DNA from: Desulfotomaculum sp.
Lineage (GTDB): Bacteria > Bacillota > Desulfotomaculia > Desulfotomaculales > Nap2-2B
Direction: 5' to 3'
DNA length: 64,000 nucleotides
Assembly: GCA_003513005.1 (NCBI GenBank)
Contig: DOTD01000072.1
Location: forward strand, 16,108 to 80,107
The translations under genes were made by a program, and so were the position numbers. Shown here in pieces: positions 54,818-64,000 of the stretch (its first letter is position 1; the number at the start of each line of letters is the position of its first letter). The notes beneath the pieces are model-generated. The model ran no database searches. It was not told the origin of the DNA and saw nothing but the letters and a program-made list of their open reading frames with translations.

Positions 54818-55459
54818 TTATTGACAGCTGTAATGAAAACTGCCTCCGCTTGCAGACGAAGAGTTGATATTGTCGCCTGTAAACTGGTATTCTGCCATGG
54901 CCTTAATTGTACTACTCACCTGGTAGCGACCGTCGGTGGCTTTGGAATCAGAAACCGTATTCCAGTCACTGGAATATTTAATCGTCAGAGAGGTATTCTC
55001 GGTCGGCGAGTTAAGGAATTTCATGGTGCGGTCCATCACATTGGACCGTTCGTTAGCTCCGTTTATACCCTCAAAGCCAAAAGAGAAGTACATCAACCTG
55101 TGCAGCGGGCCGTCCACCGCAAGCGCGCCGGACCCTCCAGTTGAATAATTGGCTACGCTTACCGCCTGGCTGTTGGCAGGGGCCACCACATCCGGCCAAG
55201 ATTGATTGTTAGCTCCATCTCCGCTTAAACTGATGTCCAGATTAACTCCATCGTAGATTCCCAGAGGCCAGTTGCCGGACGATATGCCCTGGACCAGCCA
55301 GCTTCCCACATCGTTAAAAAAACTGGCATGTAGATATTTGCTGTAAAACTCAGGATAATTATAGTAGCTTAAACTTCCTATGCCCTGACCGCTGACGAAC
55401 ATCTTGCGTCCCGAATCCAGATAATCCCTAAGGAGTCGCGAGAAAATAACTTTTTTCAA
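54818..55459 (-). pseudogene. Orphan ORF, probably the C-terminal fragment of a larger secreted protein
   Basis: Only a TTG start, which overlaps the stop of the IS remnant. No RBS seen. Gly/Ser/Asn-rich sequence I cannot assign. Confidence 0.3.
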
Positions 55460-55689
55460 CTATGTGGCCGGATGACATAATTCCAATCACCATGGAAGTC
55501 CGAGTGCTCCAGTTGGACAGCAGCCAGTTCGGTGTCTGATACCTTAATGCCGGCCGGGTACGGATTGGTGTCAAGTTGGCCCTGAACCTTCAGGCCCGCA
55601 GCAGTAGTTGTGTTGGCGATGAGGTTGACGATGACCTCGTGGCTCTCCAGCGGTCGGCCACGCCAGTTCTGCGTGATGTGATTGCCAAT
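55456..55689 (-). mobile_element. ISAzo13-like transposase remnant (last ~77 codons only)
   Basis: Own translation: IGNHITQNWRGRPLESHEVIVNLIANTTTAAGLKVQGQLDTNPYPAGIKVSDTELAAVQLEHSDFHGDWNYVIRPHS*, matching the conserved C-terminus of ISAzo13-family transposases as I recall it. Confidence 0.65.
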
Positions 55690-56108
55690 TTAGGGGATAA
55701 GGATGATACCAGCTTGTTAGCGTGTTCTACATCAATTATAACCGCATTAGGAGCAAACTCTTTCTTTTTATCAGCACCCTCCTCAACCAAAAGCGGGGTC
55801 GGAGAAAAGAACCACGCCTCCTCGTCCGCTATGAATATACCTGCCCTCAAACCGGTACATTTACGGACCTCTAACCCGTTTTCTAATAATATCTCCACGG
55901 CTTCAATCTCCCCATAACCGAGGCGGCAAATATGTGGCGGGTCATCAAGAAGGATTGCTAACTTCCCTGGACCGTTGTTTCTCACAAAATTTACGAGCGC
56001 TTTGGCTGCATCCAACCACAAACCCGGGGCTACATAAATCACTCGATCTCTGGCATGACCAATCCTTTCGCAGATCGCCTCATTGGTCAGCATACATAAC
56101 GTATTCAT
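55590..56108 (-). pseudogene. Truncated last gene of the BREX-like operon (tentatively PLD-fold-like N-terminal domain)
   Basis: Starts 3 nt after the brxL stop. The first ~135 aa look like a real domain (VIYVAPGLWLD...LAILLDD...LEVRKCTGLRAGIFIADEEAWFFS). The last ~35 aa are out-of-frame read-through into the IS remnant. No HxK motif seen. Confidence 0.4.
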
Positions 56109-56111
56109 AGA

Positions 56112-58157
56112 CTACTCCTTTAACTCTTCCTCGGTTAACGCAATTTTCAATACATCTTGAACCGTTTTTATAGGGGTGAGCTTTACTGCTTCAAGTACAT
56201 AGGAGGGCAGGTGGCGGGCCTCGTCCAGATTCTCCACCGGCAACAGGACCTCTTTGACCCCGGCGTCAAAGGCGGCTCTTACCTTCTGTTGAATCCCACC
56301 CACCGGCAAGATCTTGCCCATGATGGTAATCTCACCGGTCATGGCTAAATCATTACGCACCGGAACGCCTTTCAGGGCTGATACTATACCTGTAACCATA
56401 GCAACACCCGCTGAGGGTCCTTCTTTGGGTATCCCCATATATGTAGCCAGGACAGCCACGTCATAATTTTGTCTCCATTCTAAGGAAATGCCTAATTTAT
56501 CATGACTGGCTTTGATATATTGCGCTGCTGCTTCAATACTCTCACGCATTACTTTTTGTATGGAACCCAGCGGCACTATTCGCCCATGCCCGCGGGTGGC
56601 CTGCATCTCAAAGCGCATTATGCAGCCGTGGTCTCCGGAAACAGCCAGGCCTACGACCTCACCGACACTTGGTTCGAAAGGCAAAGACACGTTCTGGACC
56701 CTGTCCGCGTCAGGCAGATGAGGAACGCTTTGCTTTCCGGAAGGCAGGATCTTCACGCCAAGTTTTATACGCTCATATTCCCCCTGCGCGATCAGGTGCA
56801 GTTGCTCGCGCACCCGCTGGCGCAATTCGCAGGATAAAAGCAGGATTTCATCCAATTCCTCGTCAGTAACCTGCCCGTCCGGGTAGATAAGTTTGAGCAG
56901 GCCTGAGCTTAACTTCATGACTGCTCTCTGATCGCGGCCGGACACCCCCTGGGCGGTATTCCCCAGGTCAAGGACCTCGAAGCGGTGACGGACACTGCTG
57001 AGCAAATCTATACGCCGCAATTCATGCATAATTTCACAGAAATAATCGGTGATAAAGCCGTAATCCTTAGCATAACTGTCCGGACCCAGTTTGGGTATTT
57101 CCCACCCGGGCAGGTAGCCGTGAATCCGGTCGAGGAAAGCAATTACCTGCATAAAATCAGGCAGCGGCTCAAAGAGATGATAATATTTTTCGTGGGGCAG
57201 CCGTCCCTGCACGTCAATATTCCCCACAAAGACCAGGCTGGCAAAAGCCAGGATCTCTTTCTTGCCCCGGCTGAACTTGGCGTCCTGCATATAGCCCTGC
57301 ATAATGCTGACCAGCGCTTTCGGATCCTGGAAATCGGTATTGGCGATCTCGTCAAAAACCACCGCGTCCCTGGCGCCCACTTCACCGATTTTGCCGTTAT
57401 TAAGATTGATAAAAAGCTGCGCGGGGGTGGCCTTACCTCCCGAAAGCACATGCGCATAGTATGAAATGTTGCGATAAAGATAGGTTTTCCCCGTTTCCCT
57501 GGGGGCCAATTCGATGAAATTCACATTGTTCTCCACCAGGGGAATGCAGCGGGATAAATACAAGAGCTTCTGCCGCCGGCTCATTTTTGACGGAGAGAGG
57601 CCGCAGGAATTGATCAGGATATCAATCCATTGATCAGTAGAAAAATTCCGCCGTTTGGCTATATACTCATCCAGGTTGATAATACTGACCTGAAAAGGAG
57701 TAAAGCCGGTCACCTTGAACGGCCTTATTTTTTTATTGTGAACCTCGGTTTCGTCATAAGTAAGGTCAATCGTGCCCCACATGCCCCCCGACAGCAGCAT
57801 GGGGTATTGATTGACGATCGACTCCGGGATGTTGACGTAGTTCTCGTTGATGGCCGATATGCCGGCCCAGTATTTGTCTTCGGTTTCCACCAGCCGGGCT
57901 TCCAGGCTGGCTATCACCGAATGGCTGCGGTTTTCTCTGATATGGTGGCGTATTTTCTCAGCCTCGGCCCCGTGCACAAAGTTCTCCTTGAGCCGGCGGA
58001 CCACCATGTCCAGATCAGCATAAAAAGTCTCTTCCTGACAGTAATTATCAATCAGGTATTCAACCACATAGCGGGGAAATTCATCCACGCCGGTATTGAT
58101 GGTGTGCGCCTTGTTGACTACTTTGCCGCGGAATATTTCTTTGAGCTCGATGTTCAT
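56112..58157 (-). CDS. brxL: BrxL-type Lon-like protease/ATPase
   Basis: 681 aa with BrxL-like N-terminus ([14 protein letters not shown]), degenerate P-loop [12 protein letters not shown], and C-terminal Lon protease domain [16 protein letters not shown]...[13 protein letters not shown]. Confidence 0.85.
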
Positions 58158-60754
58158 GCGCCTCCCTTTTTACGGGCGAGTTTGGCCTGTTTCTGCTCCG
58201 CTAAGCTCGCTGACAAAGACCGGACGCAGACCAGGTAGTCCTCTTCCACATTAACAGCAGCCTCTTCAGAGAAATTGTCCAGGTTCAGCCCGCCCTGCTC
58301 ATAAAGGTACTTGCCCCGGGCATACATGCCGGAGCGCTTGCAGGCCCTGATCCATTCAGCCAGGGTGGCGTCAGAGGCTCTCTCCTTCTCCGGTACCGGC
58401 AGCCCGTTTTCCAGGTAAGACACATAACGTTTGATGCGGCGGCTAACGCCGGAGCTACGGGCTTCCTCCTTGGCTTTTCTCTCCTCGTCAGTGCCCGGCA
58501 AGCGGTAAGCGCCTTCCAGGGTTTTATAGAAATAATCCGGCAGCCAATCAATTAACTGCCGCCTGGGTTTCTCCTTAACGGCATAGATGTAGTGCTCAAA
58601 GAGGTCCGAATAGTGAACGCCCTCCCGGTGCGGGTTATCTTTAAGCCATTTCTTCATAAACTGTGCGAGTTTTTGCGCCGCCGCATCTTCCCGGGCGATC
58701 TCCGGCTCATCTTCCAGCGCCGGGTCGCTTTCTTTTAAGTACCAGTGGCTGCTTTTATGGGCGCCGGATAAATCCGGATCTTCATATTCAGACAGGTTCT
58801 TCCGGACCGGCTTTTTTACCTCATCGGCCACCTGTTTTAACAATTCATCAAAATTGTGGGCTTCCATCTGCCCTCTACGGACCATACGGCTGACCACTTC
58901 GTCGTAAATGCGGTCCTTGCCGCAACCTGGGTGGGCAGAGAGGTAATCGCGGATGATGGAGTGAACTTTTTGGGCAAAGGTGGTCCGATCCTCGTCCTCG
59001 CCTATAATAATTAATTGATTCATTTCACCCGGCTTGGGTTTGCGGAAATTGATCACCAGGTCGCGCTTGTTAACCTTGTCGGCGGTTAGCTGGTTATATG
59101 ACTTCTGCCCGGTATCAATGAATAACGCCCTGTCTGATGCATCGGGGATAAAGCCGGCTTCAGCCATAATATCCTGTACCATTTCCCATGTCCCTTCTGA
59201 GGTATCATGATAGCAAAGAGAAAGCCAGCGACCGGGTTTTAAAACCCGGTAACATTCTGCCATAGCCTGTGACATCATTTCTTTCCAATCATCAACTGTC
59301 TTTCCTCTGATTTCGTTGACAATAATTTCCTCATCGTGCCAGTGGGTATCAAAACCAAGCCAGGCTTCCCAAACAAAGTTGAGTTCACCGTATTGTACTT
59401 TTTCTGCATAGGGGGGATCGGTAAAGATATAATCTACGGTTTCACTAGCTATCATACTGCAGTTACATGCATTTTGTGTTGAAATCATCATCTTATAAAC
59501 CTTAGTATTTTCATTTTGCTTTTGTTGATCTTTTAGTACTTTCTTAATTTTATTTTGATAATTATGCCAGACGTCAACTTCTTGCATTATTTGCGGAAGA
59601 TAATATGTTCCCTCTAAAATATTTGTTGGAAATGATACATCTGGCCTAAACCTATTCATTCTACTCATACCTAACAATATCGCGGAAAAAGAATATAACA
59701 ACGGCCAATTACTATTATTGAGATCTGAAATCCCATCTCTTATCGCAGCTAGCGCCCACAAATTACGCCGTGTAAAAAGCTCATCCACCGTACGGAAATT
59801 CCGCCCAGGCCGCCATTCTGCACCCCAGCATTCCTGCTCCTCCGGGGCGTGCATCATACGGTCTGTGGGATACCAGTGCGGTATGGTTTTACCCTCAATC
59901 TCCCTGATTTTAGCCAGATCATACCGTTCAAAGTAATCTCTTTTTACCGGATCAGAATCGTTGTACCGCCTTTCATCCCGCTTCGGCTTACACCCGTTTT
60001 CACACTGATAACTGACCAGCACGGGCATGGCGCCGAACCTCTCCCCCGTTGTCTTGATCTCCTCTACCCGGTCCTTCTCATAGCAATGAGGACAGGCCTT
60101 TATTTTCTTAGGCTTGCCTGCCTGCGTCAGCCCTTCCAACTCAATACAGTCAAAAAGCGGTATCTTTTGCAGGCAGCGCGGGCATTGAAACACCTGCGAA
60201 TAGACGGTGTAGCCGGTGGTCGCCTTTCCTCCGCAGCGGTCGCACCTGGTCTCGTAAAGCCAGTCGATTTCCGGTTTCACCTTGGCCTTCAATTTTTCAA
60301 AAGCCTCTTGCAATTCATCTGCATCCACCGGGGTGCAGTAGTTTTTGGTAATGAAGGTAGCCGCCGGGCTGCGGTCGATGGCAATGGTTTTCCGCCCTTC
60401 CATCAGCGCGGCCAGGGCCGTTCCGCCCGACCCGCAAAAGGGGTCCAGCACTAGGTCGCCCGGCTTTGTATAGTGCCTTATGTACTGGCGGATAGCGTCA
60501 TGGGGCTTTTTTGACCAGTAGGTGTGCATGTTATAGATAGCTGTGGCTTTGGTCGTGTCGATCGGCCGGTCAAACGCCGGGATGTCATAGTCATCGGATT
60601 CCGGATCGTAAGGGTTTTCTTTTAAATGCTGTTCCACAAAAGCTTTTAAATTAGGGTTGGGCTGATCTCCCGAGTAATAGCCCTCCGGCAGGACAACAAC
60701 TTCTTTCTTGAAAAAGCTCTGCTGCTTTGCGCTATACGAGACCTTCTTCGGCAT
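58154..60754 (-). CDS. DNA methyltransferase, PF01555/COG1743-like with Zn-ribbon insert (PglXI-like rather than PglX-like)
   Basis: 866 aa with [10 protein letters not shown] (aa 103-112), Cys pairs CDRC/CPRC/CPHC/CENGC (aa 171-255) and IFTDPPYAE (aa 443-451). ATGA overlap with brxL. Confidence 0.8.
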
Positions 60755-60758
60755 AGTT

Positions 60759-63674
60759 TCACCTTATTTTCTTGGGAGCAAGTCCCAGTATGTTACCTAA
60801 ATGAGTCGGCACGCCGCGGCGGATCACCTGCTCTGAATTGAGCTTAACCAGGAAGACACGGTTCAGGCTCTGCCGGACCGTGCGCAGGCCGTCTTTGTAT
60901 TTTAATTCTATAGTGAGCAGCCTTTTCATTACCCCGTCTATTCTCTCTTGCTTAGCAGCCTCATCGGCGCCCGGCTTGAAACGGTAGATTATTTCACTGC
61001 CGGCAGTCCCCACATATAACACCTGGTGAGCTAGTTCCACCTGATCAGCCGTACTTTTACCGGTATAATACGCGTCCACATCCACCCGCAGCTCAGCGCC
61101 GAAAAGAGCCGGCGCCTTGTATTCCAGCCGCACTCTTACCTCAAGCTCTTCCCCTTCCAAGACTTCGGCCGGTCCGGTAATGGGTCCGGCCATGAGCAGG
61201 CTGTCCGGGCCGGCTTTCACCCGCATAACCACCATCGGTATGATCATTTCCTGGAGAGAGACGCCCCCGTGCGAGTAGGCATCCGGATTGTATGGAGAAC
61301 CCTGCCGTTTGAATGAATAACCAGGGCGCGGGAAGACAATACTGCGGTATTCCTTCTCTATTAACTGGCCCCGGGCTTTTACAAAACGGGTTGACCTGGA
61401 GGGTACCCGCAATTCCTGCGGGGAAAAAGCAATCATATTCGCCTTGAGTTCTTTTTTTAAGTTCACCCGCTCGAAAGTAACCTTGAGCATGGTATTCTGG
61501 TAGCTGCAGTCGATCTGTTCGTTTAGATCGCCGTCGTCAAACCAGACAGGTTTCCTGCCCAGCCGGACAAAGCCGTGATCGGCAGTAATAAAAACCTTGG
61601 TACCAGGCTCCAGGGTGCGCATTATGGCCATAACTTCATGGTCTAAAATATTCTTAATGAGCTGCTGGTAAATAAATGCCAGCGGGCGGGCCGGAACCTC
61701 CCGGCCATCACCCAGGGTCTTTACGTGAATCCCGTGCAGTTCCTTATCGCAAAGCTCAAATATGTATACGTCCAGGTTGCCGCAGCGGTAATGCACTGTC
61801 TCTCCGGTCCCGTGACCCTCCGGGACCACTGCTGCAACATCCCTACGTATCCCCATTTCCCGTTCCAGGCCTTCTTTGAGCAGTTTATCCTCGCCGCTAT
61901 CAGGATCAAACTGGTCGGGAAAGGTTCCCGCGCTGATCGCTTTGCGGGTGAGCTGAGTCTCGGTCGGCAGGATGGAGACAGCGGGGTAATCATGCAGCAG
62001 TTCAAGCTTCTCCGCCAGTGCCGGATAAAGCAATTCCTCCCAGATATCATAACGCATGCCGTCAAATATAAATATTACCGCTTTTTCGTTCTGGGGATCC
62101 CAGTTTGGTTTGAGGCGCCTGCTGATGAACTGGCTGGTCAAAACAACCTCGTCTTTTCCGGCCGCCCAGCGCGGGTACTGCAGCGCGACCAGGTCCTGAA
62201 AGCTCCTGTTGACTGCGTTCAGTTGGTGATACACCTCATCGCTGATTGCCCTGACCCTTTTTTGCGCCCGGGAGAAGGCTTGAAGAAATAACTCAGGCAA
62301 TTCTGTTTCGCGTTTGGGCAAGATGACGCCTGTATCCAGCAGCCGCTCCAGTGATGACAGGTAATACTCCAGCCGGTTTAATTTCTGCTGGTTCCACTGC
62401 TGCCAGTAATATATAAAGCCAAGCTGATCAGGTTTTTTGACACTGATATTTTTAAGCATGCTGAGTAGCTGCCGGCGTAAATGATGAATTTCCACAGCCA
62501 GTTTATAGGCCTCGCTTAACCTGGCCCAGGATTCTGACTGCCAATAATCAGCGAAACATTCGCTTTTTTCGGCGCCGTACAACTGTTCCTTAAGTTTTTT
62601 TATAGCGTCCGGGGACGGTTTTTCACCAAGACAGTCGTCTAAAGCCATCAGCAAGGCCAGGGAACGAAATAGATTGGAATACTTCTCCTTCTCGATAATT
62701 GAGATAAAGCCGGCGGGGGTATCAATGCGCAATTCTTTAACCAGCAGCAGGTCGAGATCTTCCTGATCCAGGCTGCCCTCCGCCTCCTGCGCATCTCTTT
62801 TTGCCTGGTGAGGATCAAGTTTGATCAACCGGGGGGTGGTTTCAGTCAGGACTTTTTCCTCCACCTGCTTAAAACAGGACAGACCGGGATCAATATTGGC
62901 CAGAAGTAAGTTCCATTTATCGGTGTGCTGGGCCAGTATCGCCGACAGGTAGAATCCCGTTACCACCATCTCCGCGTCCTGTTCGGCAAACCAGCAAAAT
63001 GGGGCGGGCGCCTGCAGCAACTGCTGCTTGATGGGCTTTAACACTTCGCCGGTCAGCCGGTCTAAATCCTTCATGGTCTGGTGGCCTAACAGGCCTATGC
63101 GCCAGTAATCTTCACTGCGGAGCTTTTTGAAAGCCAGTTCGGGCAACCCCAAGGCGGCAAAGGCGATAACGGTCTTAAAGTCAAAATCTGTAAAACCCTG
63201 CGTTTTCGCTCTTCTTAAATTTTTATGAGCCCGGACTACCCCGTCCAGGTGGGTAACGATCAGCCTGGCGTAGCCCTGGTCATTGCATAAAGCCGGCCAC
63301 TCCGGATCGCCGGTTATGTCCCTGAGAAACTGGCGGACATCCAGATTTATTCGGGCGTCGTCGGGCGCCGTGGCTAAAAAATCCGGGTAGAACAACGGTG
63401 GAGCGGTACTGTCGCTAATATTACGGAGCCTGTTCAGAGGAGTCCGGTCAACCACCATTATCCGCTGGGCCCCGCTCTCAACCACTGTCTCGTAACACAT
63501 GCGGAAGGCCAGGTTTGTGGCCCCGGTCACCACCACATAAGCCGCCTCGCTGCCAAACTGGTCAATAAGCCTGTCAGCTTTGCCGAGAAGGCCATAGTGG
63601 TCCCTGACCAGAACATGATCGTAGCCCCTGACCATTTCAAGTTTATCTTTAATCCAATCATTCAATAATGTCAT
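60759..63674 (-). CDS. pglZ: PglZ-domain (alkaline-phosphatase superfamily) protein
   Basis: 971 aa with VIFIFDGMRYDIWEE, SILPTETQLTRKAISAGTFP, KVFITADHGF. Confidence 0.85.
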   Translation of the reverse strand: MTLLNDWIKDKLEMVRGYDHVLVRDHYGLLGKADRLIDQFGSEAAYVVVTGATNLAFRMCYETVVESGAQRIMVVDRTPLNRLRNISDSTAPPLFYPDFLATAPDDARINLDVRQFLRDITGDPEWPALCNDQGYARLIVTHLDGVVRAHKNLRRAKTQGFTDFDFKTVIAFAALGLPELAFKKLRSEDYWRIGLLGHQTMKDLDRLTGEVLKPIKQQLLQAPAPFCWFAEQDAEMVVTGFYLSAILAQHTDKWNLLLANIDPGLSCFKQVEEKVLTETTPRLIKLDPHQAKRDAQEAEGSLDQEDLDLLLVKELRIDTPAGFISIIEKEKYSNLFRSLALLMALDDCLGEKPSPDAIKKLKEQLYGAEKSECFADYWQSESWARLSEAYKLAVEIHHLRRQLLSMLKNISVKKPDQLGFIYYWQQWNQQKLNRLEYYLSSLERLLDTGVILPKRETELPELFLQAFSRAQKRVRAISDEVYHQLNAVNRSFQDLVALQYPRWAAGKDEVVLTSQFISRRLKPNWDPQNEKAVIFIFDGMRYDIWEELLYPALAEKLELLHDYPAVSILPTETQLTRKAISAGTFPDQFDPDSGEDKLLKEGLEREMGIRRDVAAVVPEGHGTGETVHYRCGNLDVYIFELCDKELHGIHVKTLGDGREVPARPLAFIYQQLIKNILDHEVMAIMRTLEPGTKVFITADHGFVRLGRKPVWFDDGDLNEQIDCSYQNTMLKVTFERVNLKKELKANMIAFSPQELRVPSRSTRFVKARGQLIEKEYRSIVFPRPGYSFKRQGSPYNPDAYSHGGVSLQEMIIPMVVMRVKAGPDSLLMAGPITGPAEVLEGEELEVRVRLEYKAPALFGAELRVDVDAYYTGKSTADQVELAHQVLYVGTAGSEIIYRFKPGADEAAKQERIDGVMKRLLTIELKYKDGLRTVRQSLNRVFLVKLNSEQVIRRGVPTHLGNILGLAPKKIR

Positions 63675-63683
63675 ACTCTACCC

Positions 63684-64000
63684 CTACTCCAGCTTTAAGA
63701 CAGGTATGGTATCCTCATCGGGCTCCATGCCCGCAAACTGCTTGGCCAGGAAATCTTTGAATTCCCGCGCTATATCCTCTAGCTGATCTTCTTCCACTAC
63801 TGTTACGGAAGGTTTAAAATCAGCTTTTTTTACTACTTTGACCACAATCTCTTTTAAGAAACGGTTGATTGTATCGACAATCGCGGGATCAGCGGCAACC
63901 TCCCGCAGCAAAAGTATCCTCACTTCTTCTACTGTAGAACAAGCCAGTAAAGCGGCGATAATGGGTTCGTTTTCGCCCTGTTGCAGCCTTTCTTTTATTG
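63684..64000 (-). CDS. C-terminal end of a larger upstream operon gene (candidate BrxC/PglY-like, unverified)
   Basis: The reading frame of ORF 63684..63923 stays open to the window edge: ..IKERLQQGENEPIIAALLACSTVEEVRILLLREV... Its stop is 9 nt before the pglZ start. Confidence 0.4.
   Translation of the reverse strand, partial: IKERLQQGENEPIIAALLACSTVEEVRILLLREVAADPAIVDTINRFLKEIVVKVVKKADFKPSVTVVEEDQLEDIAREFKDFLAKQFAGMEPDEDTIPVLKLE

Follow-up and report, generated by a model that had tools for sequence, protein, structure and literature searches.

A probable BREX defence operon of Desulfotomaculum that falls outside the six published types and appears to mix type-3-like and type-1-like parts

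The stretch of DNA analysed here (the window) comprises 64,000 nucleotides (nt) of contig DOTD01000072.1 from Desulfotomaculum sp., and its end, from position 55,590 onward, carries the downstream part of an operon related to the bacteriophage exclusion (BREX) systems. The evidence makes it probable, and we hold this with good confidence, that the operon is a complete and intact six-gene defence operon of the BREX superfamily whose lineage matches none of the six published types. This lineage appears to be coherent, widespread and previously unclassified, mixing type-3-like with type-1-like parts, and it would represent a subtype rather than a new kind of system. The methylase, a BrxF/BrxB-like protein, a BrxC-like protein and the sequence of PglZ appear to lean towards type 3, and BrxL and the domain architecture of PglZ towards type 1. 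Among the published types, type 1, examples of which include Acinetobacter and Escherichia coli HS, has the order brxA-brxB-brxC-pglX-pglZ-brxL, with a PglX of about 1200 amino acids (aa); type 3 has the order brxF-brxC-pglXI-brxHII-pglZ-brxA; and type 4 has brxP-brxC-pglZ-brxL, with BrxP, a 3'-phosphoadenosine-5'-phosphosulfate (PAPS) reductase, instead of a methylase.

The genes in the window are tightly packed on the minus strand (Table 1), the junctions being, from the open reading frame (ORF) cut by the window edge downward, two gaps of 9 and 4 nt, an ATGA overlap of 4 nt and a last gap of 3 nt. An earlier interpretation of the letters and ORFs without database searches (the sequence-only reading) had described this packing and the ORF sizes, and a check of coordinates and junctions agreed with it. 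The motifs that it had listed, FDGMRYD, PTETQLTR and ADHGF of PglZ and DPFCGSGG and DPPY of the methylase, are all present, and profile searches pointed, weakly for PglZ, to the same families that it had named (PglZ, a type-3-class methylase and a Lon-like BrxL). The exact PglZ protein of the window is also encoded by public contig DMCV01000005.1 of assembly GCA_003445665.1 (locus L001), which differs from the window by 1 base in 13,000 nt and thus reveals the genes beyond position 64,000. These genes, on the same strand, are the complete ATPase gene (C) and two genes upstream of it, A and B, which overlap by 4 nt, so that the full order is HhH-BrxA-like protein, BrxF/BrxB-like protein, BrxC-like ATPase, PglZ, PglXI-class methylase and BrxL (A-B-C-Z-X-L). 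The operon would therefore hold a full six-role BREX-like set (BrxA-like, BrxB/F-like, BrxC-like, PglZ, methylase and BrxL), and it appears to combine the features of the BREX superfamily, namely a PglZ-domain protein, a BrxC-type ATPase adjoining PglZ and a DNA methyltransferase. The suspicion of a layout outside the six published types, which had been raised from the window part, was strengthened by the extension, as neither order nor composition reproduces any of them. No BrxP/PAPS reductase, helicase or endonuclease was found among the operon genes by the L001 gene list and profile searches, and no cognate endonuclease lies nearby.

Table 1. Positions and predicted identities of the operon genes and of the adjoining features.
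Feature	Size	Position	Strand	Basis or remark
HhH-BrxA-like protein (A)	393 aa	L001:3974-5155		outside the window, upstream in the operon
BrxF/BrxB-like protein (B)	178 aa	L001:5152-5688		outside the window, upstream in the operon
BrxC-like ATPase (C), complete gene	1437 aa	L001:5678-9991		Pfam and Walker motifs
BrxC-like P-loop ATPase, part in the window	last 105 codons	window 63684..64000	minus	gene continues past the window edge
PglZ (Z)	971 aa	window 60759..63674	minus	Pfam PF08665, 36.8 bits
PglXI-class N6-adenine DNA methyltransferase (X)	866 aa	window 58154..60754	minus	PADLOC PglXI, 1.8e-112
BrxL (L)	681 aa	window 56112..58157	minus	PADLOC BrxL, 6.5e-171
Truncated seventh gene	172 aa	window 55590..56108	minus	BLASTP to L011:17539-18819
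Insertion sequence (IS) remnant (DDE_Tnp_ISAZ013)		window 55456..55689	minus	Pfam PF07592, 8e-25; mapped from L001:17986-18219

The methylase and BrxL are the two components whose association sets the operon apart, and the sequence-only reading, which had already remarked on a type-3-class methylase together with BrxL, was upheld on this point by the PADLOC matches of both proteins. Besides its PADLOC match, the methylase is recognised by Pfam N6_N4_Mtase (9e-20). It consists of motif I (DPFCGSG, residues 104-110), a Cys-rich insert with 8 Cys, motif IV (DPPY, residues 446-449) and a helical C-terminal region; the motifs and the 8 Cys are kept in 49-54 of 54 family members. This layout fits the architecture of BrxXI (motif I, an inserted Cys-rich part, then DPPY), which has been treated as a type-3-specific protein (Rakesh & Krishnan 2026). 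By BLASTP, the methylase shares 30% identity over 639 aa (E 4e-71) with the enzyme of the canonical type-3 locus, and no similarity beyond the GxG motif could be found to the type-1 PglX of pEFER. DUF1156 models gave only 33-45 bits on it, compared with an NCBIfam cut-off of 1000.

For BrxL, the domains BrxL_N, BrxL_ATPase and Lon_C were identified, corresponding to an N-terminal DNA-binding region, an AAA+ ATPase and a C-terminal Lon protease domain with the dyad Ser582-Lys625 (window 56112-56700). The protein scored 467 bits on TIGR02688, above the cut-off of 329, and 501 bits on TIGR02653, below the cut-off of 628; it matched the solved Acinetobacter BrxL (8EMC) with E 1.7e-105 and is 34% identical to type-1 BrxL. 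Judged by its sequence, it is clearly of the type-1 kind with a Lon domain. The C-terminal domain could be aligned to the P domain of E. coli Lon (1RR9) without gaps (145 bits), which places Ser582 on Ser679 and Lys625 on Lys722, and the Ser motif reads PKEGPSAG in BrxL and PKDGPSAG in E. coli Lon. A by-eye reading in which the residue corresponding to Lon Lys722 was replaced by Gln was ruled out by this alignment. Within the family, the dyad residues are conserved throughout (Ser in 62/62 and Lys in 61/61 members), and the Walker motifs of BrxL are also conserved. In contrast, the type-1 BrxL proteins of pEFER and Haloarcula each lack one residue of the dyad, and Acinetobacter BrxL has not kept the Lon Ser motif at the aligned position. 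The paper on the BrxL structure reported no significant conservation of the Lon residues required for protease activity, and the Lon domain of BrxL has been called inactive (Rakesh & Krishnan 2026). Because the Ser-Lys dyad is intact here, unlike in characterised BrxL, the restriction step may include the proteolysis of a protein from the phage or the host.

The PglZ protein was detected weakly by Pfam PF08665, with 36.8 bits against a cut-off of 25. In its AlphaFold model (predicted local distance difference test, pLDDT, 85.9), an N-terminal alpha/beta domain and a long helical region precede a phosphodiesterase/nuclease core at about 530-820 and a C-terminal beta-sandwich at about 827-944, and the metal-site and nucleophile residues (D538, D543, T573, D699, H700, D798 and H802) are invariant across the family. 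The best fold match in the PDB was the PglZ of Acinetobacter BREX (9zn5_B, E 3.9e-14); the PorX fold was also matched. Among the NCBIfam BREX models, BREX_PglZ_3 (NF033449) was the best with 40.2 bits against a cut-off of 250, and the type-1 PglZ models gave 21.2 bits (TIGR02687, cut-off 270) and 24.5 bits (NF033450, cut-off 400). In hhalign comparisons, the core of the family aligned to type-3 PglZ with a probability of 94%, compared with 53 columns and a probability of 43% for pEFER PglZ. On the other hand, the reference type-3 PglZ has 667 aa, about 300 fewer than the protein of the window, and type-3 PglZ is described as lacking C-terminal domains (Rakesh & Krishnan 2026). Thus, the sequence of this PglZ would lean towards type 3 and its modelled domain architecture towards type 1. 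An exhaustive HMMER search of 1.84 billion representative proteins gave just 386 matches at E<=1e-3, 93 of them at E<=1e-30. The PglZ family is small and well separated from mainstream PglZ.

The three upstream proteins were assigned by means of their families. For B, 30 of 31 relatives matched the NCBIfam type-3 BrxF model at E values of up to 1 (best E 7.7e-6), and the protein of the window lineage itself reached 14.4 bits on BrxF NF033453, compared with a cut-off of 50. The family alignment contains an eroded Walker A (GRHLYGVLG) and an eroded Walker B (LLLLPG). The predicted structure of a 90%-identical homologue (pLDDT 86; predicted template modelling score 0.84) had its two best PDB matches in chains of about 190 residues from the Acinetobacter BrxC-BrxB-PglZ complex 9zll (E 2e-5, TM score about 0.5), which we take by their length to be BrxB. 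B is thus probably a BrxF/BrxB-like, catalytically dead P-loop protein with a BrxB-like fold. An N-terminal (HhH)2/UPF0758_N domain was found in 22 of 26 members of A and is missing from a Planctomycetota clade; the C-terminal 230 aa of A aligned to a protein of the BrxA family, as annotated by the Prokaryotic Genome Annotation Pipeline, with an hhalign probability of 98.6% (E 1e-15), and Pfam BrxA matched 9 of the 26. Four loci of the Planctomycetota/Terriglobia (L065, L068, L073 and L086), from a clade of about 30% identity, carry a BrxA-like protein without (HhH)2 in which the BrxA-like C-terminal part is kept. All 29 members of the C family matched Pfam BrxC_BrxD (best 2.6e-7) and 16 matched DUF6079 (best 9.8e-16), with Walker A GSGKS and Walker B DE being invariant; DUF499 was not among the Pfam families listed for these 29 members. 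Taken alone, the C protein of the window lineage was marginal (E 0.011; 15.1 bits, cut-off 22.2). When the three family profiles were searched against PDB sequences, an HhH match was found for A, and none for B or C.

Two published types were considered as possible sources of the whole operon, with Escherichia fergusonii pEFER (L089) as the reference for type 1 and Roseicitreum antarcticum pRA04 (L090; brxF, DUF6079, methylase, helicase, BREX-3 pglZ and a 242-aa gene) as that for type 3. A divergent type-1 BREX, whose methylase was swapped for one of another class and moved, had been one of the two origins proposed by the sequence-only reading, and several observations fit it: six genes fill the same six roles, the clade of about 30% identity has exactly the type-1 order, BrxL is homologous and bears a Lon domain, the PglZ architecture with its C-terminal beta-sandwich agrees best with Acinetobacter type-1 PglZ, and B has a BrxB fold. 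However, the defining PglX is absent and nothing similar to it was found, the methylase being of the PglXI class (motif I, Zn-finger insert, DPPY) and having 866 instead of about 1200 aa. Proteins A, B, C and Z can barely be aligned in sequence to type 1, as hhalign against the pEFER proteins recovered short motifs only; families and folds related to BrxA and BrxB are present, yet without a significant match to pEFER BrxA or BrxB, and B matches BrxF rather than type-1 BrxB. The type-1 PglZ models remained at 21-25 bits against cut-offs of 270-400, and the BrxC model at 18.6 against 400, and B, C and Z scored better on type-3 models. Searches of 86 loci by phmmer with type-1 PglX, PglZ, BrxC, BrxA and BrxB detected nothing. 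The extra N-terminal (HhH)2 of A, the retained BrxL dyad and the variable position of the methylase are further differences from type 1, and a type-1 origin with an exchanged methylase is considered unlikely.

The second candidate is a type-3 BREX in which BrxHII has been replaced by BrxL. It would account for the PglXI-class methylase, for the match of B, a dead P-loop protein, to BrxF, for BREX_PglZ_3 being the best of the BREX PglZ models, and for a DUF6079-type BrxC that can be aligned over its full length (966 hhalign columns with the type-3 protein compared with 73 for type 1). Moreover, BrxHII is present in only 77% of type-3 loci (Rakesh & Krishnan 2026). Nevertheless, none of the curated NCBIfam subtype models for PglZ and BrxC reaches its cut-off (BREX_PglZ_3 at 40 bits against 250), and PglZ is, with its C-terminal beta-sandwich, much longer than its type-3 counterparts, which are described without C-terminal domains. 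In the phmmer search, type-3 BrxHII was missing from the 86 loci except for a weak helicase match of 22 bits where L058 ends, and its place is occupied by BrxL in the operon. The BrxA-like gene comes first rather than last in the operon, the order differs, and A shows no match to the last gene of L090, which occupies the usual position of BrxA. In addition, BrxL has been reported to be confined to types 1 and 4, with no occurrence at all in type-3/PglXI systems (Rakesh & Krishnan, January 2026). A type-3 system that acquired BrxL is therefore given little chance.

The reading as a separate BREX lineage was examined further by its distribution across genomes. A total of 80 non-redundant related loci, 77 of which came from a scan of one genome per species, were examined with hidden Markov models (HMMs) built from the six proteins of the window lineage; many of these loci are cut by contig ends. 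The family was found in more than 16 bacterial phyla, including Bacillota, Desulfobacterota, Chloroflexota, Planctomycetota, Acidobacteriota, Verrucomicrobiota, Omnitrophota, Armatimonadota, Synergistota, Spirochaetota, Nitrospirota, Cyanobacteriota, WOR-3 and others, and in archaea of the Methanothrix/Methanosaeta group. Full-length PglZ relatives (about 970 aa, roughly 50% identity) occur in many phyla, and the nearest relatives of the locus are from Pelotomaculum and Peptococcaceae genomes. All six genes are present in 33 of the 80 loci, BrxL in 61 and a full-length methylase in 44, including each of the 33 complete loci. The order A-B-C-Z-X-L was found in 18 loci, the window included; A-B-X-C-Z-L occurs in four, in addition to an archaeal X-C-Z-L, and the five loci with A-B-C-X-Z-L make up the clade of about 30% identity. 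The location of the methylase between pglZ and brxL, which had been noticed in the window, is therefore correct for this operon and does not hold as a fixed trait, being one of three positions in the family.

The components of the system differ in how closely they vary together. Across 32 loci, the pairwise identities of PglZ, BrxC and BrxL were correlated with Pearson coefficients of 0.92-0.96, and none of 2000 permutations in Mantel tests of the PglZ-BrxL and PglZ-methylase pairs reached the observed value. BrxL is also the most conserved component, with a mean identity of 75% compared with 45% for PglZ. Because of its covariation with PglZ and BrxC, BrxL appears to be an integral, co-inherited part of the system. 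By contrast, the methylase varied with the other components only loosely (r 0.52 overall; Spearman 0.18 in the main clade), which suggests that it is an exchangeable, mobile module.

This loose covariation and the shifting position of the methylase, together with the direct adjacency of PglZ and BrxL in many loci, would also be expected if an orphan or restriction-modification methylase had been inserted secondarily into a type-4-like core (BrxC-PglZ-BrxL) and were no part of the system. A type-4-like core that gained a methylase was the other origin put forward by the sequence-only reading, and it did not withstand the comparison. The operon contains no BrxP/PAPS reductase and no endonuclease partner, the A and B genes are present, and the junctions of the methylase gene are tight (the 4-nt gap and the ATGA overlap). 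Type-4 BrxL is without a Lon domain (Rakesh & Krishnan 2026), whereas that of the window has a full one. Moreover, each of the 33 complete loci, which come from many phyla, has within its operon a full-length methylase of this one family, with invariant catalytic motifs. Such an insertion is thus regarded as extremely improbable.

Several observations were made on the methylases of related loci. Two full-length methylases of the same family were found at different positions in six loci (L007, L024, L028, L045, L059 and L067), which suggests dual specificity or ongoing methylase exchange. A tail of about 70 aa at the end of the window methylase (aa 774-848, window 58211-58435) shares 38-40% identity (E 7e-11 and 1e-12) with the C-terminal ends of two otherwise unrelated proteins from within related loci, a DUF7662 protein between B and C (L009:4821-5621) and a Ser/Thr kinase between C and Z (L007:8877-10001). 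In L041, L045 and L058, kinase-sized ORFs matched by the methylase HMM were detected at the same position as the kinase of L007. A tail common to three different enzymes suggests a possible docking module for the core complex.

Some considerations weigh against assigning the operon to a separate and functional BREX lineage. The sequences show gene content, homologies, conserved catalytic residues, joint inheritance across phyla and a setting in defence islands, and from these methylation, self/non-self discrimination, phage exclusion and protease activity are predicted. For single sequences, the resemblance of A, B and C to named BREX families appears weak (in the window lineage, E 0.055 for BrxA, 0.022 for BrxF and 0.00045 for BrxC on the curated models), so that these assignments become convincing only through family-wide counts, profiles or structure. 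All family loci are from metagenome-assembled genomes or uncultured organisms, the 77 scanned loci all being from metagenome-assembled genomes; since no PLSDB plasmid carries the PglZ family (tblastn, 1e-5), no cultured or annotated example was found. Finally, loci of the family could sit uncommented in the type-1, type-3 or 'unassigned' sets of the published survey; six NCBI accessions of the PglZ family did not appear in its supplements, of which the full neighbourhood table was not covered.

In type 1, BrxB, BrxC and PglZ form a core complex, and BrxL is an ATP-dependent DNA-binding ring that is required for restriction in some hosts. By homology, the PglXI-class enzyme would methylate adenine at N6 in a specific motif of the host chromosome, probably together with a core complex in which the BrxC-like ATPase, the dead BrxF/BrxB-like P-loop protein and PglZ are joined, and the DNA-binding HhH-BrxA-like protein may assist this methylation complex. 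Unmethylated incoming phage or plasmid DNA would be recognised by the same complex, and its replication might then be blocked by PglZ, a putative metal-dependent phosphodiesterase/nuclease, and by BrxL as a ring-shaped AAA+ DNA-binding motor, with a possible proteolytic contribution from the intact Lon site. The catalytic motifs for such a mechanism are all conserved, namely motif I and DPPY of the methylase, the metal site and Thr573 of PglZ, Walker A and B of BrxC and the Walker motifs of BrxL. A more far-reaching version is possible, although we hold it with considerable doubt: a seventh BREX subtype, so far seen only in uncultured anaerobes and Methanothrix, in which BrxL would be a proteolytically active Lon-type AAA+ machine and use ATP to degrade a protein of the phage or the host on DNA, and in which the methylase, and in some loci a kinase or DUF7662 protein, would plug into a constant BrxC-BrxF-PglZ-BrxL core by the C-terminal docking tail.

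With regard to the surroundings of the operon, the 172-aa ORF that follows brxL had been read as truncated, and the comparison with relatives agrees. Its aa 1-143 are 80% identical (BLASTP) to the start of a 427-aa protein in L011, a related locus from Pelotomaculum, and the gene is broken after codon 143, exactly at the start of a 77-aa C-terminal remnant of an ISAZ013-type transposase, of which the last 72 residues are left (profile positions 237-308 of 308 in PF07592). Thus, the ORF appears to be an accessory seventh gene cut by the IS remnant, which marks both the truncation point and the downstream edge of the island. No family match was obtained for it in Pfam, PADLOC and NCBIfam searches, and the intact 427-aa version is likewise without a Pfam family; among the related loci, homologues were found only in close relatives and one locus of Armatimonadota. 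The remnant is followed by a 213-aa ORF, a radical SAM gene and dapF, and divergent genes for a HAD hydrolase, ParB-CE and HTH proteins lie upstream of A in L001. The region 55590-64000 is compositionally distinct from its flank, because its guanine-cytosine content is 0.507 compared with 0.465 +/- 0.013 (maximum 0.489) in windows of equal length elsewhere, which agrees with the difference from the housekeeping flank that had been judged by eye. Scans for a promoter upstream of the first gene and for a terminator downstream of the operon gave nothing better than shuffled sequences.

Other defence genes were observed in or beside loci of the family, including AbiEi, a Ser/Thr kinase, DUF4062 with SLFN/AlbA_2, an OLD-TOPRIM and UvrD pair and restriction genes. 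In Smithella (L009, 18122-21466 and 1-3023), the system is flanked by restriction-like genes (ResIII/RE_endonuc and AAA_13) and by a Gabija-like pair of AAA/OLD-TOPRIM and UvrD. AbiEi and a 277-aa gene are inserted between methylase and BrxL in a genome of Chloroflexi (L008:15655-17540). In addition, three IMG/VR contigs classed as viral (L091-L093) carry PglZ proteins of the family with 42-51% identity.

To our knowledge, in-depth work on BREX has been confined to type 1. The family described here breaks two current generalisations, one that BrxL is always accompanied by PglX (type 1) or BrxP (type 4) and in no case by PglXI, the other that its Lon domain is catalytically dead. It provides a natural experiment in which the same BrxL motor is combined with a different class of methylase and with a very different BrxC/PglZ core, and features conserved in this setting point to the real needs of the motor. 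The invariant Ser-Lys dyad makes a proteolytic step a directly testable hypothesis. Moreover, current curated models (PADLOC 2023 and NCBIfam 2026) miss or under-score three of the six genes, so that the number of such systems in the genomes of anaerobes and archaea is probably underestimated.

Besides the published types, the operon was compared with related systems. Full-text literature searches yielded neither a 'type 7/VII BREX' nor any system combining PglXI or BrxF with BrxL, and a paper on an Antarctic cyanobacterium gives gene names only. The BREX-related (BR) systems centred on DUF499, including type-3 BR with a stand-alone PglZ (Rakesh & Krishnan 2026), share with the window operon a PglXI-like methylase with an inserted target recognition domain and Zn finger, and some of them contain PglZ and a dead P-loop protein; they differ in having DUF499 as their ATPase, DUF1156 in the methylase and a helicase, and in lacking BrxL. 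The system named 'MANTIS' probably belongs among them, and its identity with the window system was ruled out, as, by term counts, its preprint mentions DUF499 and never BrxL. Another relative was found on a haloarchaeal plasmid of Halorarius halobius (NZ_CP101162.1, 14184-25420; L087), which encodes a methylase, a BrxA family protein, proteins of 173 aa and 1301 aa and a PglZ of 726 aa, followed by a metallophosphoesterase. It is without BrxL and BrxHII, and its PglZ is shorter and of a different PglZ family (no tblastn match to plasmids at 1e-5). On the other hand, its methylase belongs to the class found in the window, with 30% identity over 82% of the query, and no locus closer in sequence was found for A, B and the PglZ core, which aligned to it with hhalign probabilities of 98.6%, 94.9% and 97.6%, respectively. 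This locus, which itself belongs to no canonical type, is also the nearest relative of these three from a cultured organism.

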